Part shown: piece by piece, positions 27,597 to 62,495 of the stretch
Position numbering within the stretch: the first letter of the stretch is position 1
Layout: every line of letters starts with the position of its first letter
Origin: Lingula anatina
Taxonomy: Eukaryota > Animalia > Brachiopoda
DNA length: 64,000 bases
NCBI GenBank assembly: GCA_051362555.1
Contig: CM120645.1
Coordinates: forward strand, 15,934,001 to 15,998,000
Direction of reading: 5' to 3'
The notes under the pieces: generated by a model
The model's input: the letters and a program-made list of their open reading frames with translations, nothing else
What the model was told of the DNA's origin: nothing
Databases searched by the model: none
Translations under genes and position numbers: made by a program

Positions 27597-27742
27597 CTGA
27601 AATAAATATGATGATGAGGAGACAGCGATTTCTCTTTCACTCATTACTGATCATTTCGAAGAGAAACAACATTGCTTTCACAGCAAGCTTATAACTCAAA
27701 AAGTGGATTCTGACGACATTTAACATCAAAAACAAATCTTAC

Positions 27743-28613
27743 CTAACAGCGAAGGAAGCCTGATCAATTCTGCCACGTTCCCACCAAGCTGAGCGCATAT
27801 CAACAATATAAGCAGCCCAAACAGGTTCCCACCAGGTAAGGCGTTATCCCCAGTGATAGCCCAAAGGACACCCCAAAGAAGCAGTACAGAAACAATAAGG
27901 GTCAAATACCGCCCGGTGTGCCCATGGGGTGGACACATGAGGGCATATTTCAACCTTTGACCTCTGGTGGGATTTGGTGGCAGCGGGTGGGCCTCGGTCA
28001 TGCAAGGTTCGCAACACTGGTAACAGCAATCTCGCAGCCTTGCACATTTCCGTTTATGTTCTACCTCGTCGTAAGAGCAAGAGAATGTCGACTGGCTGTT
28101 ACATAATTCGTTGTCTGTTGTGGCACTCTGTGATCCACCAGAGCCTTTCACGTCTTGATCAGCTATAAGGACTGGGGAGATTTGCACCCCGTCTTGGGTT
28201 TCAGAGGCTTTCACTTTGCCGTTGTTCTTGCCCTCTTTTTCTGCACCATTTTGCAGAGGAGCCTTTTCGTTGACAGTTTCCACTTTGGCGCTATTCCTCT
28301 CCACTGTCCGTGAGTCGTCGCCGTCTTTTTTAGTGCCTTGGGACGAGGGGGCACCTTGAGATTTTCCCCCTTGGGATTTACTTTCAGGTTCTGGCTCAGG
28401 AACCGGCTTCTGATTTCCAGTCTCTGGATCCTCCTTATCACCAGGATCTGGGTGGTGCTCCTCATCCTGGTGCTGATGGTGGTGGTGATGATGATGGTGA
28501 TGCGCATGCTCCTCGTGGTGGGTGTGGTCACCAGTGTGGTGCACGTGGTGGGGGTGGAGATGGGGGTGGTGGATGTCGTATTCGTGGATTGCTTCTTCTA
28601 GCAGGTGCTCCAC
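27743..28613 (-). CDS. SLC9B2: Exon 13: His-rich linker plus N-terminal part of SLC9B-like unit 2
   Basis: VEHLLEEAIHEYDIHHPHLH...HHHHHHHHH...CCEPCM...LMCPPHG...LPGGNLFG...LPSLL. Acceptor aattaag is weak; donor gtaag. Confidence 0.8.
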
Positions 28614-28824
28614 CTTAATTGTACATAACCCTAATGTCAAAGCTTTTAAAGTATTCACACACTGGCAGTGAAAATTGTAAATCGCCTAATTTTGCTTTAC
28701 CATTTGGACAACTGCTGGCCATTATATACTTTTTAAAATGCTTCAGCTTACTGCGTAAAAACAGAGAAATGATTAAATTGATCTTACTTAGAATGAAACT
28801 TTTTTGTCTGTGCTTTAGAGTCAC

Positions 28825-32561: not shown

Positions 32562-32634
32562 GACCCGGTGGCCTAATGGATAAGGCGTCTGACTTCGAAT
32601 CAGAAGATTGCGAGTTCGAGTCTCGTCCGGGTCG
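32562..32634 (+). tRNA. tRNA-Arg(TCG)
   Basis: GACCCGG acceptor stem pairs with CCGGGTC; D-loop TGGCCTAATGG; anticodon loop CT-TCG-AA; T-loop GTTCGAGT; downstream TTTTT. Antisense inside an SLC9B intron. Confidence 0.95.
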
Positions 32635-40318: not shown

Positions 40319-40711
40319 CTAAAATATACAATATATGGAGATAGGGAACGATAGCTCGCCTTTTTTCTTGTCAACATTTTCTTTATATTAAATTCTTCAC
40401 GATTTCCCTAAAATAAATTGTCTTTAGACGCGCAGTGCTGTATCTTGCTTGATTTACAATGGTAAGCGAATGCTGGTTCTTAGATTAGTGTCTTATTTTT
40501 ATTGAGAATTGTGGAATTTTAACTGCATTTTACAAGGACGGTCTTCGTTTGAATCAAGGCCAATGCAAGTAAATGTGGTTCACGAAAATTAAAAAAATTC
40601 AAATATTTATTTTATCCAATTCGCCTAAAATACTTTTTTTTCGAAAATGAGCTTGCAAAGCAAAATTACTACTAAAATTAACTTAGATCGATTTTTTCTT
40701 AATATGCCAAC

Positions 40712-41257
40712 CTAGTAAAGGTGGAAGTCGTATTTTGCTAACTAAAAACCCTCCAAGTTTACAGGCTAAGAACAGCACAATAAGGCCGAAGAAATTTCCA
40801 CCAGGGAGCGCTTCATCTCTGGTGATCGCCCACAAGACAGCCCACAGCAGAATCAGCGTTAGTTTTGAGGTGACGACCCGCCCGAGTTTCCCGTGAGGCG
40901 GGCACATCAGAGCGTGGCGCATGCGCTGTGCTCGCGTTGTCACTGGCGGGTGGTACTTCGTCATACATGGTTTACAAAAATTATAGCAACTCGTGCGGCA
41001 CGCATCACATCGCCGCGTGCGTTTTTTGTAGCTGGACTTTTCTTTGCCCTCTTTCAAATGTGCTGTAATGTCTTTAAATTCAACGGAACCATTTTTCTTC
41101 ACGTCCCCAGTGTCTTTGAAGTCTCCTTTTTCATTTTCTTTAATTTCTATCCCATTTTTCAAGTGCCCGTCGTCTCCTTTACTGTTTTCATGGCTGTCAT
41201 CTAAAAGGGGATTGATCGCAGGCGACCCTGGGTCTTCTTGACGATGAGCATCAGTAC
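40712..41257 (-). CDS. SLC9B2: SLC9B-like unit 1, exon 2
   Basis: TDAHRQED...CYNFCKPCM...LMCPPHG...LPGGNFFG...LPPLL; acceptor tttatccttcag, donor gttggc; phase 1-1. Confidence 0.88.
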
Positions 41258-41328
41258 CTGAAGGATAAACAGTTTGTCTTGTCAAATTGAAGCACGTTTT
41301 ATTTTGGATCTATTAGATGGCACAAGAG

Positions 41329-42097: not shown

Positions 42098-42169
42098 TTC
42101 CGACGCCGGGAATCGAACCCGGGCCACCTGGGTGAGAGCCAGATATCCTAGCCACTAGACCACGTCGGA
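42098..42169 (-). tRNA. tRNA-Glu(CTC)
   Basis: Reverse complement TCCGACGTGGTCTAGTGGCTAGGATATCTGGCTCTCACCCAGGTGGCCCGGGTTCGATTCCCGGCGTCGGAA; lies in predicted intron 1 of the SLC9B gene. Confidence 0.95.
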
Positions 42170-43463
42170 TGCTACAAGAAAACCTTATCACAAAATGAGA
42201 GTGGTTCAGCTGTACCTGTACTATTACTATTGCGCATGATATTATCCCATTTTTCAAGCAGTAAGTATCTTCACACTGATACAAGAAGATAACATCAAGA
42301 AGCCGATAAATCTCGCTGCCCACACGCGCCGGGACGCATAGACTCGCGTCCAAACGTTCCAAGTCTATTTGTGTCGTGTTGTGAATGTCAGGTAATCTAT
42401 CATGGCCTAAAATGTTTTATGTAATTGTTAGGGACTATTTTTGAAGTAATCGTCCTTTTATTATAACAGAAGTAAAATATTTGAATATTTCATACTTATT
42501 TCAGTCGTTTTTGGAAATAATAGTTATTTTCTTCATGATGACTATACCTTTGGTCTTAGGAATGCCGTTGTGTTAGCGAAAGGATTTCGAAAATGGTTGA
42601 GGCAAACCTCAGAAGACAATAACCACAACAGGTTTAATGTTATGTGAGGTATAACATACAGTAAAGGATGCATAAGTGAATGCTGTAGTTGTTGAAAACA
42701 GTCAGAGGAATTATTTTCTTTTTATGATATATAAAACTAGTTACTGTCTAATAGTATGTGTATTTTTTTGGGACTATATAATATTGTTATTCCCGTGAGC
42801 TTATGAATTTTAAGAAAATAAATATATAGGTCTACAATGCTTGATATGTTTGCAGTAACATGAAGGAACATGTCTTTTTTACTATCAACTTTCCTGAGAT
42901 AGTTTTCAATAATCAAGTGGACCCTACACAGACCAAAAAAGGGTCTAATGCAATAAAAGTTACAAAAATGTTTTTTTTTTTTTCAATCAGTAATAAAAGC
43001 AGACAAGCCCTTGTAACTTTCGATGTAAAATATAAATGGGTGCTTTGTTGTATATACCGGTAGGCCTTTGTCTTGCTCGCACCGAGAAGTTGTAACTTAA
43101 ATTATCCTGCTACCGGGCGACAATAACATGTGACGTCACTAACTGGCGTGAGGGAATCCCGTGCAAGGGGAATCCCTTTGCAATTTAATGAATTTCTTGC
43201 ATCAATGCATGAAATTTGCCTGGAATTATGATAATCATAAGCAATGAAGCTGTACACGTGTCAGGATGAAAAAAAAAGAAGAAGCCGAGCATTATGAATC
43301 CTTGTCGTGGACCCACAGTTCCCGATATCGACGGCACTACAATATACGAGTTATTTTTAGTAACACGATTGACCTAGATAATTACAAATGGCTGTGCAGC
43401 GTGGAAGAAAACACCAATATAATTTATCACAATGCCTGAATCCCTAGACTAATATATGATTAC

Positions 43464-43524
43464 CTGGAGGAGCTCCAAGTTCTATGGCTTCGGTAGCCGG
43501 AGTTGAATCCTTGGTAGAAGTCAT
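43464..43524 (-). CDS. SLC9B2: Probable first coding exon of the SLC9B-like gene
   Basis: MTSTKDSTPATEAIELGAPP then G|gtaatc; phase 1 matches exon 2, which has no early ATG of its own. No homology support. Confidence 0.6.
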
Positions 43525-44949
43525 CTGTGTTCTACGACGATTAAAAACGAAGGGAAATGCTGTACGGCAAGGTTAAGTCATACTGTAGGCCTAACTGGCA
43601 AGCATGATTCGTGTAACCGCTGAAGAATTTCCCCGAATCAAGGCACTCAGGTCCATATTCTGTACACGTACATCTCTAACAAGACAACAAAATGTTAAAC
43701 TGCGCCATCGCTTCGTCAGACTGAGAACTGAGCCTGGGAGTTACATGAATTAACCCGCTAATATTATAGAGACTTCACATGCTGCTTTGCAAGATCGAAG
43801 CGGATTCCCGTCCTATATCTCAGCTACCTCAAGGTCATGTAATGACGTTACGCGTGCGCGTTGCTAGGTAACAGCTAATTACCTAATTACTGTATACTCG
43901 CTCCTGTTTAACTGTGTCACGAGCTACTAATTTCGAAAAAATTAGAAGTCCTTCTTGAGCAGAAACCACCTTCAATCCGAATTGTGATAAACTTTGTGCA
44001 TCCTTAGAAAATGTCAGCGTTCGCAATCAAAAGACTTCAACTTTGATTTATCACGAATTCTTGCATGACTTGTAAATTTTATCTTTCTAAGTTTAGTTTT
44101 GTAACCATTATATAAGTCAAGGATATTTTGTTTGACGCCCTATCCATGATCATTAACATAGCCACATCACGATAGAATGGAATATTATTCTTTTTTTCTC
44201 CGTGATTTAGTTTTTCTATTTTAAAAAAGCAAAAACAGAATTGATTGTTGCCGAAAATTTCTTTTGGTAAAGTTGCATCATCTTTTATAATTAATTATTT
44301 ATTTACCCAACTGAAAATTAGGGGAGTGGGTGGCGTTTAAAAAAAACTATCGGAAATTTTGTTCCAGTTCTTTTATATCCTAGGTGTTAATATCTTTTGT
44401 TTTGATAATCTGAGGTGAAACGTGCTTCACTGGGGGAAATAAAAAGCATGTCCCGGATCTCTAGGTACCCTGGTGAAAGTTGGAGTAAAGGGTCCTCTTT
44501 GTTACCTTGGCCAACCGCGTTGTTTGTCAAAAAATCTTATTACGCACATCGTACCATTCTCCAAAACGTGCCCAGTTTTTACAATTGCCGCTGCGTATTG
44601 TTTCCTTTTTATTTTGAATGGGAGGTCTGTCCTAACTCAAACATAACTTTTCATGAAGCAGAAACAGTGGTAAACAATTTTAAAATTTATGATGGGATTT
44701 TTTTGCATATTCAGATTTTGGTGCAAACAGTCCATGTGTAGGGTATGTTAACAAATGAAACGCTCCCCTCCAGTCCCATCTCTCTCTCTTTTTCTCTCTC
44801 AATGGAAATATTGTATATGTTTGAGGATACTCGGGCCTCAGAGGATATTTGGCACAAAATATTAAATGGTACTGTTCTGGTTATTATTATTATTATTAAC
44901 TAGCTACTTTTCATATGAATTCAGTCAATAAGATAGAAAAAAAGACGCA

Positions 44950-45021
44950 TTCCGACGCCGGGAATCGAACCCGGGCCACCTGGGTGAAAGCCAGATATCC
45001 TAGCCACTAGACCACGTCGGA
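44950..45021 (-). tRNA. tRNA-Glu(TTC)
   Basis: Same body as the CTC copies; anticodon loop CT-TTC-AC. Confidence 0.95.
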
Positions 45022-45803
45022 TCAGTTGGTGGCTTAGGGCAACTACGTTATACTCAAATCTTTCTTATTCCTTTCGCCTGAATCCATTAATGCATTCTCC
45101 ACCTGTTTTGGTGGGCGCTAATGAGAAAAGATGTAATACAGTGAATTATACCAGATGTCTTTAATGCTGTTATTATAGCCCGTGATTACAGCTAACTTAA
45201 ACAGCAGATTAGAACAGGTCTCGTTCTAGATTTAAAAAAAGTTTCACAATTCGAAGAAGGATTTGAATGCATTACTCCATGCATAATACAAGAACCGTAA
45301 AAGCGAGCTTATATGAATCTTTCCGTAATTTCTCTTCGCTTTGGCAAAGGAGCTTTGCATTTGGAACAGATCCCAATCAGGATTCCACCACACTGGATCT
45401 ACGTGCGGCAAAAGGGCATTCGGAATATTCTCATACAAGAAAACGCTGCAATTATTTTCCAAACGGAATATCAACAGGACTATTATGAGTTTATTTTCAA
45501 GATGTAGAAAAATCTGGGTATGGATGAATTTAACGCCAACCTAACTTGGACATACAATTATTAAATAATAATAATAATAATAATAATAATAATTTATTCG
45601 AGCATTAAATGTGGCAGTTACATTTGTTAGCCCTCTATACTACAAATATATAAATAAATAAAAGTTATACATCACTATGGATTACTACTAATACAGTGTT
45701 TAAGATTATTAATTACATTAATTACATTAAAAGGATTATAGGAGGGAGGTTTGCGTCCACGGCCAAAGGATTAAAAATTAACTAAAAACAAAGGAAAAAG
45801 GTC

Positions 45804-45875
45804 TTCCGACGCCGGGAATCGAACCCGGGCCACCTGGGTGAGAGCCAGATATCCTAGCCACTAGACCACGTCGGA
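45804..45875 (-). tRNA. tRNA-Glu(CTC)
   Basis: Identical to the 42098-42169 copy. Confidence 0.95.
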
Positions 45876-48800
45876 TCCGATGATCAACTATGCAAATTGC
45901 ATCCCTCCCATCACTCTCTTATCCTTCACCTGAATTGCTAATTGCTTACCCACCTGTTCCGACCGGTGTTTAGGATAAGAGAAAATATGCATGCTTTATT
46001 AGGCCTACAGATGTCTTGAGGCTGTAATAGCTGTCTTTCAGCTGTCTTTAAGGAAGGAAGAGAACCAGCCCCGTTGTAGGTCTCTCATGCTTAGAAGGGA
46101 AAAATCTTCCATATTTCGAAATTAAAAAAAAATATCAATACGCCTTTATAAAGTCTTTAATAACGAAGTCTTCTGAACTTAAGGTTCAGTATAGGCCCCT
46201 ACTTGTTAACTGGGTCGTAGTCTGAACAGCAATGTCTCTGGAGGGGAAAGCAAAGGAGAGAAAATGTACTACATAAAAATATTATCTGTTATATACCACA
46301 ATTTTTCAGTCAGAGAACTGCTTGTGTCACAGAAATATAAAAGATCGAAAAGTAGTGTGTATTTCGTGTAGTTATATTGGTTTCCGGAAGCACTAGTTCA
46401 GTAAGGTGAACGTAGAAGACTGTGCTAGCTATATTGCCAAGGTAAAAGCGATCCAAATTTTTCTTGTTGTTTTATTGGATGCCGGAAGCACTTGGAGGTG
46501 GAAGAAGATACAATTCTTCAAAGGGGAAGGCAGGAGAAGACAAATGGAGCCCAATAACACTGACGCCGGAGGTCGGTGGCGGCCTCCGCCTTAGCCCACT
46601 ATTTATCAATGATAGGTGTGCAAGCCGCTGCCGTGCTATAACACGCAGTAAAGACCGTACGCTGCTTGGTACACATGTTAAAAACTGTTGATGCATAGAT
46701 AAAATCGTCTCGTTTTTATACTAAGTTGAAAAACTGATAAAAAAAGGCATAAATTTTGTGGTACAAAAGCCGTAATGTAGGCATTTTATTTTATCTCCAA
46801 AGAATCAGCTATTTTTCTCTTTTTTTTAAGTTTTAAAATGGATTGGAATGCGATATCGCTGTGTTCGTGATTAAGCTAACAAGGAACATGATATAAATGT
46901 GACTATTGTGACAAGCAGAGAAGCACGAGTTAGGCTGTCATGTGCAAACCAAGGTTTGGAAGACTGGCGATATTCAATCATGTGGTTCTCAAAAATGTTT
47001 TCGTTGGCTAACGTGTCAAACAACCCTCCCCTAGATACGCAGAAGTCAAAGCCAAATCGCAACTACGTTTACGTTAATGTCTAAGCGTTTTGGAATTTCT
47101 TACTATCTTGTGATAGCAAATTCTCTCTGTATTATGGTGTTTCATTAGTGCAGTAACTGCAACACGATGAACAACAGATATGATCATTCTGAAAAAAAAA
47201 ATGCATGAAAATGTGTAGACCAACAAAACATCTTGATGGAACATAGTTGTTGTGCAAAAATCTTCCCAGAACAGAAATTTGCTTTGCCAGCTATAATGGA
47301 TACTCAGAAAAAATATCTGAGGATATAGCAAAATTCTCTCTGCGGCCCTGGTAGAGGGTACTAGTTAACCCTAGTGATATAGATTCTGGTTCCCATTAAT
47401 TTGAATAGATTAGTCCCGTCCTGGATTTTGGCCAACATAGTGAACCGAATGAAAAGCGGACTCTGTAAGATAGACCCTCAGTTTTATTAACAGTATATCC
47501 AGCTGAGAGTATTCAGATATTACTGATTGTGTTAGCGGTGACAATTGTGTCCATTTGTGCTTACTCTGTTTCTATTGCGCTTGTAGGCCACGTCCGAAGC
47601 GGCGGATGTGCAAGAATCAGTGTCTCAAGCATTTATACCTTTCTACTTGGACATAATGCCTTATTATGTCCAAGCTTTCTATCATGTAGAAGAAAAAAAT
47701 TGTTAAAATTTAAAACTTGCTTGTGATTAATAAATTTGGAAAATTATCCTCATACTGAACAAGAGATTGCACGAAGAATATATCTTGTCCAGTTTGTGCC
47801 GACTTTAACTTAACGCAGACAAAAGGCTGATATTTAAAAGTGGATGCGCACTTAATTTTCAATATAATTTAATCGTATTTGACCCGGTTTTTCTCGACGA
47901 TTCATTTTGTGAAAAAATTTAGCCTTCCGCTCTTCACTCCGCCGCTACGTTATTTGTCCGCAGTTAATCCAGTGTATTTTATTACAGATATAAAATGTCG
48001 ATTAAAATTTTAGAATTCTTATTGATACTTAGACACCAAATAGACCATGTATCTATGAGAATTGATCTCGTTTTTTGATACAGTTTTTCTCAAATTTTGA
48101 AGTTTGAATGTTTAAAACAAAGCAGCATTGTAAGTGATGTCACGCTAATTGCGAAGAAGGGGGGCATTATTTTTCCAAATATAAATCATATTCTTTCCCT
48201 TTATCTGTGGCTTCACAAGTGTTGGTTATGTGCTACAGAATAAATTGTTCCAGTAGCAGAGAATCACGCAGTGTTCATATGTTTGAACTTTGAACGACCT
48301 GCAATTTTGATGGGTTTGTAGATCTACGTGTTCCTTTTTTCTTCTACTCTGACGCCTTCTTATTATGACAGAGGTGTTAAGTTTCTTCTCGTCTTTTCTT
48401 CAAGATGAAACGAGATCCACTGGGTTTAATATAAGCTTGCGATGATACATGTAATGAACCCATGCCGAGTACCAACACTTCTTTTAATTTTATAATAAAG
48501 ACAGAGAAGATGTTGATGTCTGGAACAACTTGATACCCTACGTCTGGGTAGTTAAATAACAGTTTATGTGGAAACAATAGCACATTGTTGTATACAGTAC
48601 CGTACGTCAATTAGTCGGTTAAAACAAGTGGCATCTATTTGCGAAGACCGACTTTCGATCACAGTCGGCCTAGCTTGCGAATGGCGATAAGGATCTTTAA
48701 AATGAATAAGGATCCTGATGTGTTTTTCTTTTTCTAATAAAAATCAGCATTATATTCCAGCCTCCTCAGGTGAATTTTCAAAGGTGAGCGGTTGAGAAAA

Positions 48801-49057
48801 TTGCCCTAACCTTGGTGCTAGCTGATATTACCCACCAGACAATCTTTATTGCTGAACGACGGTGCGGGCTCCGTTGTCAGCTTCGTTCACTTTATGCTAT
48901 TTTTTAACATTTTGATTTGTAAACTACTCTAAGTACATGTTACCTACCTCGAGTAAGACTGCTCAGGTTAAAGCATGACGGAAAATGTCAAAACACACAC
49001 ACACACACACAGACACACACACACATTAAGGCCTTGGGTATTATACCCTCAAAATAA

Positions 49058-49071
49058 ATGAAAAAAAAAAG

Positions 49072-49115
<44 letters not shown>

Positions 49116-49128
49116 CTTTTTTTTTCAT
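49058..49128. repeat. (TA)n microsatellite within a near-perfect palindrome
   Basis: ATG-An-GAAA-(TA)n-TTTC-Tn-CAT. Confidence 0.85.
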
Positions 49129-49269
49129 ATATGAAATAATCTTCTATTTACAGTCTCTTTTGTAGACCTCTTTCTTCAGACATCCAACTGTTATACGTAT
49201 AGACATCAGCTTTATTCACTTATTTATTTATTTATTTGCTTTTTGAAATAGGGAACAAAATTGAAGTAT

Positions 49270-49341
49270 TTCCGACGCCGGGAATCGAACCCGGGCCACC
49301 TGGGTGAGAGCCAGATATCCTAGCCACTAGACCACGTCGGA
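49270..49341 (-). tRNA. tRNA-Glu(CTC)
   Basis: Identical body. Confidence 0.95.
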
Positions 49342-49888
49342 TTTCTACTCTTTTTTCGCTTGGACAATGAGCTGATCAAATACTATAAGATACCACCTGG
49401 AATGCTTCTGCCGTGTCTTCCGGTGGGCTTCGGTGTCAGCGTTTGCAAAAAGAGACATTGGCTGTTTGGTTTTTCTTTTCCACTAAAAAATTAGCGTTAT
49501 ATATGAGCTTTCTAAAATGAATTTGGTGAGGTGAGTGTTTTAGAAAATTGTCTTAATAACCTTGGACCAGGTCCTAAATGATGGCACACCAAACAATGTT
49601 TTTTGGCTATGCGGGCTCCTTTGTTAGCATTTTTTTGTTTATTTTTTTCAGCAACTTGATAAGTGTACTTCTATTGCAATTCGTGTTACCTACCTCAGAT
49701 TAGAGGCTCAGGTAAAAATGACAAACATACATACAAACAAAGGCCTTGGGTATTATCCCCACAAAGTAAATAAATAGAATCATGCCTCCTTTTATATCAG
49801 CATTAGTCTGTCTCTTTTACAACTTTCTTTCACTCTCAAAAGAGAACGCCTTGAACAGGTTGATTTGTATTCTTGTTTAAAAGAGAAT

Positions 49889-49960
49889 TTCCGACGCCGG
49901 GAATCGAACCCGGGCCACCTGGGTGAGAGCCAGATATCCTAGCCACTAGACCACGTCGGA
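49889..49960 (-). tRNA. tRNA-Glu(CTC)
   Basis: Identical body. Confidence 0.95.
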
Positions 49961-52926: not shown

Positions 52927-53154
52927 GTACGTAGTTTATTTCGTAGTCAAAAGCTGAGACCTATACTTCTTCAGATCGGCCTTTGCCGTACTTCGACTAC
53001 TGTTCGCTGCCTAACAGATTTCAAGGCGTCCTGAAATTGAAGCCTTTGATTTTAGAGGCTCCCGTTGATGACAGTTTAAAACTATTTGCCATTCCAGTTT
53101 TACCATGGTTTAAACAATCAATAACTTTCAAATCCATCCATTTCACTTCTACAG

Positions 53155-54297
53155 ATGGTATAATACAACCTCCATGACAGGTAGCACCCTAAATGCCGAC
53201 TTTGAAGAGGGAAAATATGTAACTGTGAGTGACACAAACAGCGGGGAGGCAATCAGCTTCAGCGGTGCCGCCAATCCATCAGTGTGTGACCTTGACGACG
53301 ACGGCCTTGTGGATATCTTAGTTGGAGCCAAAGGGTACGTGTATCTAATGAAGAATTCGGGCAATGCAGGTGCCGGTCATTTCGAAAGTCCCGCGAAAAT
53401 GACATATTCTGCGGATAAACTGTTCATGAAAGTTGGCAAATTTCGCACCTATGCCGTCTGTGCTGATATGAATGGCGACGGAAAGCTGGACATTGTTGTC
53501 GCTGGGAATATCTATTTCAACCACAACAAGGTGATCTACTATCCAAACATTGGTTCAGCAAGAAATCAACCAGCCTTCGCACAACCCGTGGTATTTCTCC
53601 AGAACATGCCGAAGGAGATAGACGTGCGAATTGACGTAGCTGACTGGAACGCCGACGGCCTTTTAGACATTGTTGTCGGCCGGAACGAAGGCCGCTTTGC
53701 ATTTTACGCCAACACAGGGTCTCCAACATCCCCGATCTTTCTGGAAGAGCGGGTGGACATCCAGCCTGATAGCACTGCGGAGCCTGCGCCCCATCCTCGT
53801 GTTGTAGACTGGGATGAAGACGGCAATCCAGACATTCTATATGGGTCTTATTATTCGGGACCAGGGCTGCAGTACGTGTCAATTGACAATTCTGGCGAAA
53901 CTTACGAGGAAAGTATCCACTATGTAATAGACGGTGAAAAATTCCTCCTGGCGGACAAAGTTGGTAAAAAACTGTCGACGGATGTGGCAGACTTCAATCT
54001 CGACGGGATTGCCGATTTGTTGGTGTCTGGATCTCGAGGTAAAATGGTCATTTTCTGGGGAGCACCTCTCTTAAACAAAGTGAATGAACTGATTGGAATT
54101 ATAGATCGAATCTTGCAAGACTACCCTGAGGATCTTGGTACAGTTATGGCAGAAGACTCAAGTGTTAGCCTCGGCCTTCAGCGAGCACAAGACAAGTTAT
54201 TGGAAATCGCAAACGTGCCATCGTCCGGGTATTTCAAAAACGATTTCTTCAACAAGATGGCAAGTCTGGTAGAAAAACACCCACATTACCTTAAACG
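53155..54297 (+). CDS. FG-GAP-repeat/zinc-metallopeptidase protein, exon 2 (FG-GAP/VCBS beta-propeller repeats)
   Basis: Five DxD/NxDGxxD(I/L) repeats: DLDDDGLVDIL, DMNGDGKLDIV, DWNADGLLDIV, DWDEDGNPDIL, DFNLDGIADLL. Acceptor cttctacag; donor CG|gtatgt. Confidence 0.88.
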
Positions 54298-54544
54298 GTA
54301 TGTATATGCATATACTTTTATTAATTTAATTTTGAGCATGTCAGTTGATCATCTATATTATCTCAATCTTAACAGATTAAATAGAATTTTAAGATTAATA
54401 GGTGCCAGTAACTTAATCGATGGAATGTAGTTATATTATCAAAGCTAACTATACTATAACAAACTCCGGTAACAGTTTGGGCTGGGCTACCAGTACTCGT
54501 ATAACAACGTACATGACTTTTAAGTGATAATTTTACTTTCACAG

Positions 54545-55697
54545 AAGAGTGTTCCAGTCACCGTATCTAGTCTACTTCAGTGGTTACATGTGGACCATTA
54601 TGCTAGAGTGCCGGGCAGACACGGTAGAACACAGAACAGAGCTGGCCAAGGTGACAAACCACACAGGTCCACTATACGACACATTGGTGGGCTCGGGGAT
54701 ACTGGTGATCGACAACGACGCCTCCACCGAAGATGCCAACCGCATGCTTAGAGATTACACAGCATCTCTTCGAGTTGAATACTTTTGGGTGGAACGCATA
54801 AGCATACAGGGCTGTATTGGAGTTATCGACTCAAAGCAGTACCATTGGAGCTGGCTCAAAAAATCGAGTGTTAATATATTCTGCAAAGCCGAAAACTCCG
54901 GTATCAATAAAGCCAGTCTGCCAGGCTGCAGGGTGTGTCAAACGCATGGAAACATACTCGGGAATATGCACATCTCTGTCATAGCGCATGAATTGGCGCA
55001 CAACTCCATTACCAATCTTGGCAGTGTATCTTCCACCGAGGCCCTTAGAGCACGAAAACTCACCTTGATGCACAGGGTGCTGAAGGACTGCCCAGACATC
55101 ATGTGGAAAGAAAACCGGGAAGTAGACAAAGGCGCTACCTTAGATCACTTCGAGGCTCAAGGTTGGTTAAACGCTGACACGGATAACTTTGGAGTCGTTA
55201 TAAAGAGGTACTTTGATGGGAAATGGGTTCCAGAAGCAGCAAACTATAAGTATGATATTATAACAAATGTAAACCCTGGCGTCGTAATCGTTAATAGCCC
55301 AAATGAGTACTTCGCCTCCATCGCGCAGTGCTGGGCCCAAGATTCCAAAATGCTTCTCGATATTGCAGTTGAACGATTCCTGGTCGGGTACAAGGAAAGC
55401 ATCAACCAGATTCTCCTGCTGGCTGAATACTACTCGGTAGGGGGCGACACCACACGTTTCTGGATGCACAACAAAAAAGGCGACGTCTACTCTTTTGATG
55501 TAGACCTCGAACGGGATGTCAAAGGCAATATTATTTCGATGTCAGTCCCGAAGGCAACGGAACGGGATCCATTGGACAAGGGTGGTGCATATCTTGTCCA
55601 TCTTGATTCTCCGCATGTGTATGAGTTTGCAGTAGATGACGACGGCTTTGTCGTCAAAATTATAAATTTCCCTTCTTACATTGCTGCTGCAAATTAA
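54545..55697 (+). CDS. FG-GAP-repeat/zinc-metallopeptidase protein, exon 3 (HEXXH domain)
   Basis: Acceptor ctttcacag, phase 2; VIAHELAHNS (54987-55001) and downstream NEYFASIA; stop TAA at 55697. Three exons total 2370 nt. Confidence 0.88.
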
Positions 55698-56322
55698 TTA
55701 GGCCTAATGTCATCTCAACACGAGGGTATGGTGAGTGTGTTTATGTGTACCGAGGCTCGCTTTGCCGTAAGAAATCAACATACATGTACCGGTAGTGGTG
55801 TGGATGAGAAACGACCATCATTAGTGAAAACTCTATTAAGATCTTCAATGAAAACGTACGCAAAATACATTATAAGTTTTATAATTTTTATCTATTAATA
55901 TATTTTTTAGTAATCAATGTATACATGTACTTGGTGAGCATGTTTTGTTAATTACAGTACGCAGTGTTTTTATCTGATAGGCCAATTATTAACCAAGCCC
56001 TAAAGAGTCGCACTTTCAACTGTGTTGGGTATATATAAAGAAAATCTACAACAACAACAAACCGCATTTGATTCGTCATATCGAACGTCCTAAAGTGATT
56101 TCTCGTCCAAATACCTCTTCCCATCAGAATAAGTCAAAGCAAATAAATCATAACTTCCCATACTCAGTCAGAAGACACGATGACTTTTGAGCTTGTTGAA
56201 CAACCTAGATTGCTTTTGGTTGTGCTTTTGCAGCGTGACAGCACAACTGTAGCAATGACGTAGCTTCCAATGCAAAGATACTATTGGACTTTTTATAACT
56301 AAGATAAAATGGGTTAATCTTT

Positions 56323-56605
56323 CCCGCACGAAAATGCGGTAGTATCGAAGTAGAAAAGAAGCATTAACGCAGTAGTGGTGTGGAGCATATTTGCAGTAGA
56401 AATGCAGCATAGCCTACTGCAATTCTACTCCAAAAAGTACATAGGTTTGTACAGAGAGGAGCATTAATGCAGTAAATTAGCAGCATGATAGAAGCATGTT
56501 TCAAATATGCTAATTAGCTCCCTAATCGAAGCAGATTTGAAGCATGTTTGCATTATGATTGCAGTAGTCTACTGCGCTGGAGTATCTACTGCGTTTTCTT
56601 GCGGG
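56323..56605. mobile_element. MITE with CCCG termini, EnSpm/CMC-like
   Basis: TIR CCCGCACGAAAATGCGGTAG / CTACTGCGTTTTCTTGCGGG; TT on both flanks; internal GCAGTA/GCAT repeats. Confidence 0.6.
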
Positions 56606-56734
56606 TTATCAAATACCTTAATCAACGCCCCTAAATAGTGAACCTCACCAGACGCTTTCAGGTTTGACGCGAAATTAGTTTAAAAGTCGTTCGAAGGGTT
56701 AATTTGCATTTTTGGTGAAGTAAGCAGTGCTCAT

Positions 56735-56751
56735 GTCCTCACTACGGTGGG

Positions 56752-56791
<40 letters not shown>

Positions 56792-56842
56792 GGCCCCTGG
56801 CGCAAGGATGACACGCACATTCGTGAAGCGTTCCATATTTTT
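56735..56842 (+). ncRNA. U6: U6 snRNA full-length copy (probable retrocopy; 5' part of a U6/LINE chimera)
   Basis: 5' stem-loop GTCCTCAC-TACG-GTGGGAC, then ATATACTAAAATTGGAACGAT-ACAGAGA-AGATTAGCATGGCCCCTG(G)CGCAAGGATGACACGCACATTCGTGAAGCGTTCCATATTTTT. One extra G and one A>C against the conserved metazoan core. Confidence 0.95.
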
Positions 56843-59800
56843 AAAAAATGATTATGTAAGCAAACGGCGTGATTTTGACCATGCTAAACAACGAGCTAAA
56901 CGCCAGTTTTGGCGTAAATCGCAAGAAGAACTCTTACAAAAACAAACCAGTGATCCACGGAACTTCTGGAGAGATATTGGTCGCATCGGAATTCAGAAGG
57001 ATAGAAAAAGTACCATTCCCATGGAAGTACTGAGAGATGATGGATCTGTCTCCACGGATATCACTGAGGTTTTATTGAAATGGCAAAATGACTATGCAGG
57101 TCTATTCAGTGTGTCAGATAAAAATTGTGATAGTTTTGATAAATCTTTCTTAGCCCAGGTTAATGAGAAACTTTATAGTTATAGACAGGGTGAACTTGAT
57201 ACACCAGATTTGAGTGCCAGTCTTAACACTGATATTACGTTTAAAGAAGTTGAGCTTGCAGTTAATGGTGCTAAGTGTGGTAAAAGCCCCGGGCTTGATG
57301 ACCTGCCCTCGAAGGTCTTAAAAAACAATACAACTATTATATTTTTGTACAACCTGTTTAAGTACTGTTTTGCTAATTCTGTGGTCCCTAGTGATTGGCT
57401 TAGGTCTGTCATTAATCCCATACCGAAAGGTAGTGGTGTTAATTCATGCAACCCACTAGAATATAGAGGAATAACATTATCATCTAGCATATATAAGATA
57501 TACACATCTATTCTGAATAGGAGATTATCGAAGTGGGCAGAAGATAATGAAATAATAGTTGACGAGCAAAATGGTTTTAGACAAGACCGTGGGTGTTTAG
57601 ATCACATGTATGTAATGTCCAGTATAATAGAAAATAGTTTAAAGCAAAAGCAGAGCATATATGCCTGTTACATCGATGCAAGAAAAGCATTCGACAGAAT
57701 TAATAGGTCTCTTTTATGGTATAAATTATTTAAACTAGGAATATGCGGAAATTTTATGAATTCCCTCCAGGCTTTATATGATAACCCAAAGTGCTGTGTT
57801 AGGGTAAATAACTATACAACAGGTTTCTTTGATATTGAAACTGGAGTAAAACAAGGGTGCCTGTTGTCACCTTTACTTTTTGACATTTACATTAATGATA
57901 TGGTACATGATCTGAAAGCTCTGGGTAAAGGCATTAATGTGAACGATGAGCTGATTTGCTCGCTTCTTTATGCAGATGACGTTGTGCTTTTGGCCAAGAA
58001 TGAGGAAGATTTACAGTCAATGCTTAATGTGGTGCACAAGTGGTGTTATAAATGGCAGTTGACTCTGAATGTGGACAAGACCCAGATAGTTCATTTTAGG
58101 TCACCTAAAATACCTAGAACAAATTATGTTTTTAAATGTGGCAATTTTATAGTAAACATTGTTGAGAAATATAAATACTTGGGTATGTGGTATTTTGAAC
58201 ACTTTGATGTGAATAAGACTGTATCATGTATAACTAAGTCTGCAAGCAGAGCTTTAGGTCTTCTGATTGCAAAATGCAAGGCTTGTGGGGGCATGCCCTA
58301 TGCATGCTTTACGAAATTATACGATGCACTTGTAGCTCCTGTGTTAGAATATGGTTCTGCTATATGGGGACTCCAGGAATTTAGTCAGATTAATGCTGTT
58401 TTCAATAGAGCTTGTAGGTATTTTTTGGGCGTGGGTAGGTACGCGCCAGCCGCTGCCACCCGTGCTGAAATGGGATGGATTTTGCCTTTTGAAAAGCAGT
58501 TAATTAAAGTGACAAATTTCTGGTGTAGATTAGCTAATATGGATTGTAATAGGTTGACTAAAAAGGTGTTTTTATGGAGTTTACGTGTATCAAACAATGG
58601 AAAGAAAAATTGGATAACTAGGGTTAAAGGTAAATTTAGTGATCTAGGAGTAAGCCACCTATACGTAACTGATAATGATATATCGAAGGCTAGTACACTT
58701 AATTGTGTTAGGGAGAGTGTAGCTTTTGAATGTCACTCTGATTGGTTGGCGAAGCTATGGGATGATACCCCACGTAGAAATGGAGGTGGAAATAAGCTGA
58801 GGCTATTCAGACTGTTTAAGGGATCTTGGATATTAACGAAAAAGTCCAAAACTAATGCAGCTAATGAAATTTCCTATTAACTTAAAGAAAAGGTCTAGCA
58901 AGCCAAACAATTTTTCAAAGTTTGTAGTCACAGTGTAACACGAGTGACGTAATATCAGCGTTTTGAGGCTAAAATTGTCTTTTTTTTAATCAAGAATTTC
59001 TCCTAAACAAAAAGCCCTATTAATACGATTGAAATAGCTATCTAAAGGTTAGCACAAACTCCATTAAACTCTGTCAGGATTTTCTCTTTTTATTTTTACT
59101 TTTGATTTTATTTTGATAAAACGTGAATTTTACGAAATATATATGGACCTTCCAATTTCAGTAATAATAACTTCAAAAATAAAAGGTCAATCTAAAAACC
59201 AAGACTCAGACGACTAGATATTATACTGAAACAGAGACACATCAAATTTCATGTCAATCTGACAGTTACAGAATGAGATATGGGGATTGAAGTTTAGACT
59301 ATGTTATCAATCTTCAAAGCTGAGAAATCGCTCCTAAACCATTTTGCTCAGGTAATTGGGCTATTTAAGCAAAATAATTGCACCTCCACCTTACCTGTTA
59401 TCATCTTGTTGATCGGGAAGGTCTATACACCATTACGTGTTAAAATTGGGTTGTTTGTTTCTATCTAGATGCCAGAAAATCTTACTTTTGTACGCAAACT
59501 TATTCGTACCACGAAAGTCGCTCTTCCCTGGGAAATGATTGACAGCTGAGTAGGTCTACCTACTCTCGTTTCACTGACGTAATTAATCATAATTGTGCCT
59601 GACGCAGTAGGAGTCTGTGCACTGTCTAGGAAGTGTCTAAGGAAGCGCTTACAAACAAAAAGAGGATTACTTGGTGTGCCAGCAGAGGACAATGCCACCC
59701 GTCGTGCGTGGGCGCCGCTCTACACACCAAGACGCGAAAATTGAGAAAGTAAAGCAAGATTTACTCCGAGAAATGGCCGAATGTGGGTACGTATATGCCA

Positions 59801-60909
59801 TGATGCCACAGAGTGCCAAGACCGTAATATGCGAATTTGAAAATGTTTTGGGTGGCAATATTACTTTAAAACTTGCTTGCTATTACAATCTTTATTGTGC
59901 ATAAAATGATTGCCTAACGATTTTTTTCTGACAACTCCAGACGTTGTACGAATACTCAGCAGTTCAAGTGTGATCTCGAGTCTTTACCGCGGGGTTTCTC
60001 CATCCACCAGAAGCACTCTCTTTCAAAATTCTCTTGCTTTCCTCGCTCATCCGTTTTCTCACGACTTTCTTTCTTCCCATGACTGTGTATATAACTGTGT
60101 TCTGCTTAGCTGACGTAAGACTTATGAGCTGCCAGGGCACGCGTAACAGCTTAAGAAGTTAGACAACCATTCTTGCCCCGCCCCCATAGTAACGGTGCTT
60201 GACAACGGAGGCGGAGCCTAAAGCCTGCCACCCGTACCAGTCAGGACAGGTAGAAAAACTCGTCCAAATGTATATTTTTAGTCCGTGTTTCACAAATATT
60301 ACTTAATTAAGTATTAGATACAAAATTGATTATTTCTAACGTATAAAAAACTAAAAATCGAGTTTTAGACGCATTTTTAATATCCTAGACCCCTTAAGCA
60401 AGACTTGGTAGTTAGTGAATACATTAAGAAACCAACTTTATCGCTCAAGCACCGGCGGGCATTGGCTAAGCTGAGATGTGGGGTGGCCCCACTCAGAATA
60501 GAAACTGGACGGTATGAAAAACTTCCAGTGCTGGAGAGAACGTGTGTACTCTGTGAATCAGGTTGTGTTGAGGATGAGATTCACTTTTTAATTAATTGTC
60601 CATTTTTTAATGATTATCGTACTGATTTAATTAGAACTGCTAAATGTTTTAAGCCGGATTTTGATTTATTGGATGAAGTAAGCAAATTTCTTTTCCTGAT
60701 TGATGATCCAAAAATGATTTTTAGCACTGCCAAAGCCTGTAGCCTTTTCTTAGGATTAAGAAGAAATTTTATGTATTTAAACTGTAATTAGTTCTTTTAG
60801 TCTCTCATAGTTCTCTGTATAGAACTGCCTGATGACTGTTTTAATTTTTATTGTTTTTAATTGTATCTATGGGTGAGACTTTAATAAAATAAATTGAATT
60901 GAATTGAAT
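56843..60909 (+). mobile_element. 5'-truncated RTE-X-like non-LTR retrotransposon (RT plus C-terminal CCHC), split by a Kolobok-like insertion
   Basis: RT motifs KSPGLD, PIPK, YRGITL, EQNGFR, DARKAFD, GVKQGCLLSP, YADD (57969-57980), YKYLG. C-terminal LRIETGRY..CVLC..EDEIHFLINC at 60405-60791; (AATTG)n tail; no endonuclease domain. Clade assignment is from motif recall. Confidence 0.9.
58820..60393. mobile_element. Kolobok-like non-autonomous DNA transposon
   Basis: TIR GGGATCTTGGATATTAA / TTAATATCCTAGACCCC; TTAA TSD at 58816-58819 and 60394-60397; purine-purine start (piggyBac would start CCY). Confidence 0.88.
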
Positions 60910-62495
60910 TGCTCATAGTTAGAAAGAATGAGGGTCCACGTGTGTGTTTGGGGGGGGGGGGGGGGGAAGGATTGTAACAGACACGTGCCCACGGACACGT
61001 GCCCAAGAGCTTTGAAAGAATTTTTTTCTCTCACCAACCTGTCCAGTAAGAACAATAATAATTTTTTCCTTCTACCTCGCTTTGCTCGAAACTTTTTAAA
61101 TTAACTCATCCCTTTATCATAAATCAAGCAAACAAGCAAGCTATCTTGCAAAAGTCTAGAACTTATAATTTAAATTAATAGACCAAAATTATATCCTTTT
61201 CATCATTATATCTCTTTATTTGACTTAGATTTCCATTAATTATTTTAGTGTTTCTCTTGGAAATAATTTTGAACCCAAGTTTGGAAGTTATTGGTAGAAA
61301 ACACATCTAAGATGTACCTTTTTAAGAAAAACTTACATATTCTGATGGCCACATGTAACAACATTTTAAAAACTGTTGATTATTTCCATTAACTTTCAAG
61401 ACTGAGTCGATGCAAATCTTAAATTATTATTTCATAATATAAAGAATCAACAACTCCAAAGGAGCAACTAGTTATAGGACAACATCCACTTCTTACAATG
61501 AACTTTCCAGGTCTGCATTTGCTCATCTGGTAATTATTTGATAGCATAAAAAGAAAATTCATTAAAAGAATTCATTAAAAGAAAATTTCTATCAAAAGGA
61601 TGAGATCTTGTTCTATAATTAATTATCATGATAATATATAGTATTGACAGTTCTTATTGTATTAGCATTGCACTGGACAATCAAAATGCCCAGGTTTATC
61701 AGAAATGGAGCAGATGTAAGTATTAGTATGTCATTTGCTTGCACATGCTTTACTGCTTTTTTAAAGACCGACAATGTACATGTACATTGCACCTTTATAT
61801 AACACAAAAGTTTATATTTTCCTTGAAAATTTACCATTTTTCCTAAATTACTAAGGTTAATCCTATATAAACCCGTTGAAAAAAATGAAATAAAACGTTA
61901 ACTGTTTTTCAAGTTATCATTTTTTAATTGTTACCTTTTTATGGTTTCAAATGAATTAGTTCAAAAATCTCCTTACATGTATGTACTACAAAAGAATGTG
62001 AAACTTTAGAGAGAATCAATGGGACACGTAATTTTTTGAAGGATGCAAAGTTGTATTAAAAATCTAAAAGCAATTGTCTAGAAAGTCTTACCATTTCAGA
62101 ATAAGTTTCCATATAGGGTTCAATCAATTTGTAGTCAAAAATTGAAACTATCACAATTAAACTGCCTTATTATACTGTCAACAATAGACATGTTTAATAT
62201 TGCTCCAAAGCACCATCCTCACATTCTTAATAGTCTTCAGTGTTTTCTTTTTTTAATGTCTATTTCTTATGCCCATGATTGTATACATTGTTCATGGCTT
62301 TCTAACAGTGTCACTACAAACAACAATTCAGTTATGCAAAATAATAGATATATTTTCCCTAAAATATTCAAGTATTATTGTGCCTTTGGTTTGAAGTCAA
62401 GAAGGCTGTAGCTGACAAATATCCCCAAGTTTCTTGACTGATATTACATGGGCAGTTTGGGGATGGGGATTCCAGGCCCCCTTGCAGTGGTTTCT

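Follow-up and report, generated by a model that had tools for sequence, protein, structure and literature searches.

A full-length U6 snRNA copy on an RTEX-like LINE fragment in the brachiopod Lingula anatina: a probable single-event retrotransposition chimera

Introduction

How did a complete U6 snRNA sequence come to lie directly in front of a LINE fragment in the genome of the brachiopod Lingula anatina? The window analyzed here is a 64-kb stretch of DNA in which the two sequences, both on the plus strand with U6 5′ of the LINE, are enclosed by copies of a single 7-nt repeat. The original prediction explained this arrangement as a U6/LINE chimera inserted in one event. Our analysis makes it highly likely that a full-length U6, joined to the last 2.5 kb of a young, RTEX-like LINE, arrived through one target-primed reverse transcription; the template was probably an RNA in which mature U6 was already attached by ligation to a broken LINE transcript.

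Features of the locus

The locus contains the following features, given in window coordinates.

56728–56734, plus strand: 5′ target-site duplication TGCTCAT; U6-less alleles match the window up to its last base
56735–56842, plus strand: full-length U6 snRNA copy (Rfam RF00026), from +1 to the terminal T-run
56843–58815, plus strand: first piece of a 5′-truncated, RTEX-like LINE ORF2, with linker, reverse transcriptase (RT) domain and part of the C-terminal region
58816–60397, no strand assigned: later non-autonomous DNA transposon with TTAA at 58816–58819 and 60394–60397 and terminal inverted repeats
60394–60791, plus strand: second piece of the LINE ORF2, sharing the TTAA; stop codon at 60789–60791
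60792–60911, plus strand: LINE 3′ UTR and (AATTG)4 microsatellite tail (tail at 60892–60911)
60910–60916, plus strand: 3′ target-site duplication TGCTCAT, its first 2 nt common to the tail

The U6 copy is complete, as had been claimed: it matches Rfam RF00026 over model positions 1–105 of 105 (105.8 bits, E 1.5e-26) and carries a single inserted base relative to the consensus. No TATA-like box was found at −35 to −20 or elsewhere in the 100 nt upstream; an octamer at −33 lies inside flank that is common to alleles with and without U6. We considered a functional U6 gene at this locus and rejected it, given the lack of a TATA-like box near −30 and the existence of alleles without U6. U6 also provides two in-frame ATGs to the RT reading frame, which we judged to be chance rather than a route to an RT that lacks its endonuclease. 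No function of the chimera is evident, and it is likely a dead retropseudogene.

The first LINE piece encodes an RT domain (Pfam RVT_1, E 2.4e-38) and no endonuclease. The second piece carries a C-terminal CxxC...H...C motif that 41 of 45 long relatives also possess. Compared with full-length relatives, the LINE has lost the first ~350–380 codons of ORF2 and has kept its own C-terminus, 3′ UTR and tail; it represents the 3′ ~2.5 kb, or back two-thirds, of the element. The 1,578-nt TTAA element that splits the ORF, and that was absent from the original prediction, is bounded by 24-nt inverted arms (TTAA included) that are 88% complementary. Its longest stop-free frame is 87 codons; we take it, as a label only, to be Kolobok- or piggyBac-like. 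In silico excision of the element yields 787 stop-free LINE codons, which align from residues ~320–400 to the end in all 32 relatives of at least 1,090 amino acids. Because these codons are open once the later 1.6-kb transposon is removed, the LINE copy is, by the state of its reading frame, young.

Affiliation of the LINE

The closest proteins to the LINE ORF2 are 45–49% identical, and a near-identical parent was absent from 996 and 176 protein matches. For clade assignment we used labeled references from Additional file 30 of PMC10294476, two of which were counted and four more only inspected. In by-eye, ungapped alignments, a hand count gave 108 of 216 identical RT residues (50%) with RTEX-1_LG and ~60 of 213 (28%) with Proto2-1_BF. 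By this hand count the LINE is RTEX-like, which supports the affiliation originally proposed. L1 ORF2p scored 109 bits, compared with 650–680 bits for the LINE’s own relatives, and the ESM Atlas returned only RVT_1 clusters, which carry no clade name.

Relatives at 40–45% identity contain an ORF1 of 360–480 codons and an ORF2 of ~1,170 codons with Exo_endo_phos and RVT_1 domains; this layout of two ORFs with an APE-type endonuclease and RT describes the relatives rather than the parent family itself. None of nine ORF1s from these relatives matched an esterase family. An SGNH esterase occurs in ORF1 of some RTEX members and is apparently not required of all (PMC3905857). The esterase-free ORF1s led us to consider Proto2, a clade that classifiers confuse with RTEX (PMC10294476); we rejected it on the RT identity count. 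A scan of metagenome contigs with a single protein found no relative.

Insertion as a single event

At the junction, five T adjoin the LINE with no spacer. The absence of a spacer agrees with the original prediction, whereas the count of exactly five T for U6 is ambiguous: U6’s own share is 3–5 T, and LINE protein homology starts at the T-run itself. The codon at 56841–56843 encodes Leu, as does the same column in 21 of 30 relatives, and the next column is Lys in 26 of 30. In light of this conservation, 1–2 of the five T probably double as the conserved LINE Leu codon or are common to both parts. The join keeps the reading frame and lies where the LINE protein is conserved.

The heptamer TGCTCAT was confirmed on both sides of the composite. 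It is exactly 7 nt long and cannot be extended on either side; discounting the overlap with the tail leaves 5 nt. TGCTCAT occurs 14 times on the two strands of the 64-kb window. Among ~200,000 random position pairs, with 5 nt of slack allowed each way, 0.13% showed a match of at least 7 nt, which puts chance agreement at ~1.3e-3, or on the order of 1e-3. One copy directly precedes U6 +1, the other marks the end of the LINE tail, and this sole duplication at the locus brackets U6 and LINE together. The insertion site does not contain the L1 endonuclease consensus.

We next consider alleles, for which reads and contigs were compared over the left flank and as far as U6 +15. In run X9 (study P3), one contig of 1,010 nt agrees with the flank as far as 56734 and then continues for 428 letters that have no match to U6 +1 to +15; the last bin has a depth of 27.6, equal to 86.7 × 7/22. 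In run X3 (study P2), the last-bin depth of 72.5 is accounted for by a contig at 49.6 that enters U6 and a contig at 71.9 that stops at 56734, the pattern that a heterozygote would give. In run X1 (study P1), which may be the window’s own sample, depth stays flat at 11.1 into U6. Run X10 (word share 0.16), at first a candidate for an empty allele, is uninformative, as its coverage is confined to a high-copy repeat of the flank. Since contigs of two further studies lose their match exactly at the boundary between the target-site duplication and U6, U6 is not a resident gene at this locus. These U6-less contigs bear out part of the empty allele that had been anticipated: the insertion appears to be polymorphic, and we infer a clean empty site in which 56734 would be joined to 60917.

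Together, the enclosing duplication and the alleles that break off exactly at its boundary support the original claim of a one-event chimera, and we hold with considerable confidence that U6 and LINE were inserted in a single event. Two successive events, in which a U6 gene or retrocopy was present first and the LINE landed later at its T-run, appear improbable. The T-run followed by an A-run at the junction does resemble an APE nick site, a pattern known for L1, and contigs followed for 15 nt into U6 would also be compatible with an allele that carries U6 alone. This order of events is opposed by the U6-less alleles in two runs, the lack of a TATA-like box upstream of U6, and the fact that the only duplication encloses both parts; moreover, the A-run is LINE coding sequence, the conserved Lys. 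An assembly artefact that joined a U6 gene to a LINE is more improbable still. Read and contig support spans the left flank and the start of U6 rather than the U6/LINE junction, but contigs of two runs pass from unique flank into U6, the duplications on the two sides match, and the join preserves the LINE frame.

Joining of U6 to the LINE

In the model that we favor, an intact RTEX copy would have supplied endonuclease and RT and nicked the target, and priming would have taken place at the AATTG tail through 2 nt of microhomology. Before copying, RtcB may have joined the 2′,3′-cyclic-phosphate oligo-U end of U6 to a 5′-OH LINE fragment; the TTAA transposon split the ORF later. RtcB ligation is plausible by analogy with human cells, in which it yields full-length U6 with a T-run on 5′-truncated, sense LINE sequence (PMC6789731). 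Given a single event, we lean modestly toward ligation as the joining step.

The probable 1–2 nt T overlap at the junction leaves room for template switching beside ligation. Here the same single insertion would have occurred, but the parts would have been joined at the DNA level: RT would have left the broken LINE template and continued at the 3′ end of an unattached U6 RNA, with 1–2 T of microhomology easing the jump. This alternative competes with the ligation step and not with the single insertion. The conserved Leu makes such an overlap likely, template switching is the origin to which Doucet et al. ascribe the chimeras with L2 and RTEX (PMC4476161), and chimeras of this kind have been described for a fungal LINE (PMC2104539). 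We nevertheless consider it rather unlikely: the U6 copy extends through the natural T-run, as a cyclic-phosphate end predicts, U6/L1 RNAs form in human cells without retrotransposition (PMC6789731), and a T overlap could easily arise by chance in an AT-rich LINE.

The chimera is known as one copy. It could in principle descend from a master locus in which a LINE lies behind a genuine U6 gene and is transcribed by read-through; the junction would then recur at many sites, as in a nascent U6-headed element. Families of snRNA-headed SINEs do exist (SINEU, PMC4494074), and the two ATGs of U6 would be available to the RT frame. We regard this origin as very improbable, however: the 2,482-nt LINE body contains 33 runs of at least four T that would stop Pol III, and snRNA promoters are external and so would be lost by daughters (PMC4494074). 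Alignment scans provided 160 related LINE loci, and Rfam scans of 100 of these found no snRNA, a weak blank given that the loci come from other species and mostly from collapsed contigs. One locus (L110) contained a 5S rRNA match on the opposite strand.

Discussion

The Lingula locus extends the formation of U6/LINE chimeras from vertebrates to a spiralian invertebrate. The chimera is not a new system, and the original suggestion of novelty must be narrowed to the host. Doucet et al. (2015) described U6 chimeras with L2 in platypus and Anolis, with RTEX-2 in Anolis (three copies), and with a CR1-like element in turkey, the last unresolved (PMC4476161); Moldovan et al. (2019) repeat these non-L1 findings (PMC6789731). 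The screen described by Doucet et al. was confined to vertebrates. Our literature searches found no U6/LINE chimera in an invertebrate, and the Lingula U6/RTEX chimera may be the first such case.

Among the closest counterparts is U6/RTEX-2 of Anolis carolinensis, in which U6 likewise lies 5′ of a non-L1 LINE fragment of the RTEX clade, in three lizard copies. Platypus U6/L2 and U6/Mon-1 resemble the Lingula chimera in their U6 5′ of a non-L1 LINE, short target-site duplication (1–9 bp) and simple-repeat tail, but nearly all the platypus copies described carry 5′-truncated U6 on a short L2, whereas Lingula has full U6 on 2.5 kb of LINE (PMC4476161). Mammalian U6/L1 chimeras share the full sense U6, T-run, 5′-truncated LINE and single duplication (PMC6789731; Law and Burns, PMC11838501); the Lingula chimera differs in its RTEX-like partner, an (AATTG)n tail in place of poly(A), and a target that lacks the L1 endonuclease consensus. 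Outside vertebrates, WEIRD/MGL of Magnaporthe grisea joins a cellular non-coding RNA to a LINE fragment, in a fungal host and with an RNA other than U6 (PMC2104539). Crocodilian SINEU elements carry snRNA-derived 5′ parts on a retroelement, but these are U1/U2 heads of amplified, uniform families (PMC4494074), in contrast to the single U6 copy of Lingula, for which amplification is not evident.

The Lingula case agrees with the literature, in which chimera formation is regarded as an ancient process that is not bound to L1. It also offers a caution that U6 annotations in invertebrates include retrocopies. Some animals appear to be without the insertion. Given that the insertion seems to be polymorphic and the LINE family young, both filled and empty alleles are available in Lingula, probably together with live LINE RNA; ligation and template switching can therefore be tested against each other for a non-L1 element. 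U6-to-LINE RNA ligation has to date been demonstrated in human cells alone. A tentative further reading, which we regard as less likely than not, is that this ligation is an old bilaterian reaction still active in the Lingula germ line, where it could have produced a first invertebrate chimera, young enough to segregate, with a full-length, ligation-type U6 on a stringent RTEX LINE. If this were true, dependence on RtcB would become testable outside vertebrates.

Anatomy of the U6/LINE insertion

The feature under study is a real, young, and apparently polymorphic U6/RTEX chimeric retropseudogene composed of the following parts.

56728-56734 and 60910-60916, plus strand: target-site duplication (TSD) TGCTCAT, 7 nt and not extendable
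56735-56842, plus strand: U6 snRNA copy matching the whole Rfam model (105.8 bits, E 1.5e-26)
58816-60397: DNA transposon of 1.6 kb, non-autonomous, bounded by TTAA at 58816 and 60394 and by terminal inverted repeats
array ending at 60911, plus strand: (AATTG)4 tail, the repeat of the LINE 3' end

Both the completeness of U6 and the presence of TGCTCAT on either side of U6 and LINE agree with the original prediction. TGCTCAT is found at 14 places in the window with both strands counted; when random pairs of positions were compared with 5 nt of slack, 0.13% gave a match of at least 7 nt. Two bases of the right TSD copy are common to the tail because the (AATTG)4 array ends at 60911. U6 and LINE very probably arrived as a single event; their separate, sequential insertion is improbable.

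This U6 is the only one detected by the Rfam scan of the window, and it differs from the Rfam consensus by one inserted base. The extra base lies near the internal stem-loop, whereas the LINE part contains no frameshift across 787 codons; it may stem from a slip during copying, from species variation, or from an error in the assembly. No TATA-like box was found upstream of U6, and an octamer at -33 falls within the flank common to alleles that lack U6. Two ATGs within U6 (56790-56810) are in frame with the LINE reverse transcriptase (RT), in a frame open from 56763 that, before the TTAA insertion, would have encoded an endonuclease-less RT of ~800 codons. Their being in frame is probably due to chance.

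The LINE fragment and its clade

The frame that follows U6 carries RVT_1 (E 2.4e-38) and is split by the 1,578-nt TTAA-flanked element, whose longest frame is 87 codons. The GG...CC ends and TTAA of this element suggest a Kolobok rather than a piggyBac transposon. Removal of the element by coordinates restores 787 open LINE codons, which align at 39-45% identity with all 32 relatives of at least 1,090 aa, beginning at residue ~320-400 of each and continuing to its end. The copy thus lacks the endonuclease and is young. Relatives from host-contaminated assemblies have an ORF1 of 360-480 codons, in which no esterase was matched (0/9), and an APE-RT ORF2 of ~1,170 codons. Many intact animal LINEs (L081-L101 and other loci) lie in contigs filed as bacterial metagenome-assembled genomes of Sedimenticola, Thiodiazotropha, and Nitrospirales, which reflects host contamination of those assemblies.

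The predicted RTE-X-like affinity is supported by hand counts on two labelled RT references from Additional file 30 of PMC10294476. The window RT shares 108 of 216 ungapped residues with RTEX-1_LG and about 60 of 213 with Proto2-1_BF, and the L1 ORF2p match reaches 109 bits vs 650-680 bits for the LINE's own relatives. Assignment to RTEX is therefore supported by pairwise identity, short of phylogenetic proof.

The U6/LINE junction

A profile of 45 long relatives places the start of in-frame LINE homology at the T-run itself, so no spacer separates U6 from LINE, as had been predicted. The predicted count of exactly five T proved ambiguous. Three residues before 56850, the relatives' column is Leu in 21/30, followed by Lys in 26/30; the window encodes Leu-Lys, with the two final T of the run included in its Leu codon. 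The LINE may thus have supplied, or may share with U6, one or two of the five T. DNA of the parent LINE family was not found when near-identical ORF2 was sought among 996 and 176 protein matches, and the T count cannot serve as a ligation signature without it.

Direct observation covers the chimera anatomy, the common TSD, the boundary between alleles, and the DNA transposon that inserted later. An intact RTEX copy would drive target-primed reverse transcription, with priming presumably on the simple-repeat tail. There is roughly an even chance that the parts of this single event were joined by RNA ligation. In human cells, RtcB ligates 5'-OH L1 fragments to the cyclic-phosphate end of U6 independently of retrotransposition (PMC6789731). 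The products carry a U6 with a terminal run of about 4-6 T, followed by L1 truncated to varying extents. The full-length U6 in the window is consistent with RtcB ligation. A template switch by the RT, a possible but less likely joining step, is fitted equally well by the probable T overlap at the junction. Transcription of a master copy, in which a LINE behind a U6 gene is read through, is highly unlikely, since Pol III would have to pass 33 runs of at least four T within the LINE body. Rfam detected no snRNA beside related LINE loci in the 100 scanned of 160.

Alleles at the insertion site

Nine DNA runs from three studies contain 65-71% of the words of 56300-58900. Four runs were compared with 55800-56749, using a filter that can drop records and following contigs that enter U6 for 15 nt only. 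A 1,010-nt contig of X9 (study P3) follows the flank as far as 56734, where the TSD ends, and then runs on for 428 letters with no match to U6 +1 to +15. Depth in the last bin is 27.6, which is 86.7 x 7/22; therefore, no other X9 contig covers the U6 start. X9 retains 65% of the words, which suggests that near-identical LINE copies exist elsewhere. In X3 (P2), our decomposition of the depth and variant tables divides the last-bin depth of 72.5 into 49.6 running through and 71.9 x 7/22 ending at the TSD, as in a heterozygote. Depth is flat into U6 in X1 (P1, possibly the window's own sample). X10 covers a flank repeat only and is uninformative on the allele. The U6-less allele is thus present in 2/4 runs, the U6 allele in 2/4, and neither is visible in 1/4. 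A search for an empty allele had been proposed as a check; alleles whose match to the window stops at the TSD edge were found in X9 and X3. Their letters beyond 56734 fall among 202 loose contig ends, and an empty site with a single TGCTCAT is inferred from the break. The insertion is apparently polymorphic, and misassembly is extremely improbable.

A ~284-nt repeat at 56323-56606 is of very high copy number, with contig depth thousands of times that of the flank. Other alleles lack it and close the gap in two different ways, 56334 to 56639 and 56320 to 56606; the repeat is probably a mobile element of MITE or Helitron type.

Other features of the window

27726-28685 and 40683-41309, minus strand: two tandem, paralogous Na+/H+ exchanger 9B2-like exons
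32562-32634: one further tRNA, separate from the five-gene set
42098-49960, minus strand: five near-identical dispersed tRNA genes, four identical and one with a changed anticodon base
53114-55697: two adjacent long intron-free frames (438 and 388 codons) with raised GC and FG-GAP repeats in the first (E 1.1e-23)

One 9B2-like exon contains a long histidine-rich stretch. The exon at 40683-41306 (minus strand) matches Lingula anatina LOC106154881 with 95% identity across 91% of the exon; its next matches are nemertean (41%) and chiton (33%), among three matches in 996 candidates. This places the host as Lingula or a close relative, a brachiopod. The second frame of the 53114-55697 pair has an HExxH-like motif and no Pfam match; the two frames may belong to a single gene, for which horizontal acquisition is possible.

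Relation to known chimeras

The prediction that a U6 chimera with a non-L1 partner in an invertebrate would be undescribed did not hold as to the partner. Doucet et al. 2015 (PMC4476161) found U6 joined to L2 and Mon-1 in platypus and, in Anolis, three chimeras for each of the partners L1, L2, and RTEX-2; a turkey chimera may have CR1 as its partner. They consider U6 chimerism general for non-LTR elements, with vertebrates alone screened. Law and Burns set out the defining features of U6/LINE chimeras (PMC11838501), and fungal RNA/LINE chimeras are on record (PMC2104539). SINEU families have U1/U2 heads (PMC4494074), whereas the head of the window chimera is U6. No invertebrate U6/LINE chimera was found in the literature searched, a scope that excluded most subscription papers and Repbase. 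With a non-L1 partner already published, the remaining novelty lies in the invertebrate host and in what this chimera offers for testing RtcB ligation beyond the vertebrates.
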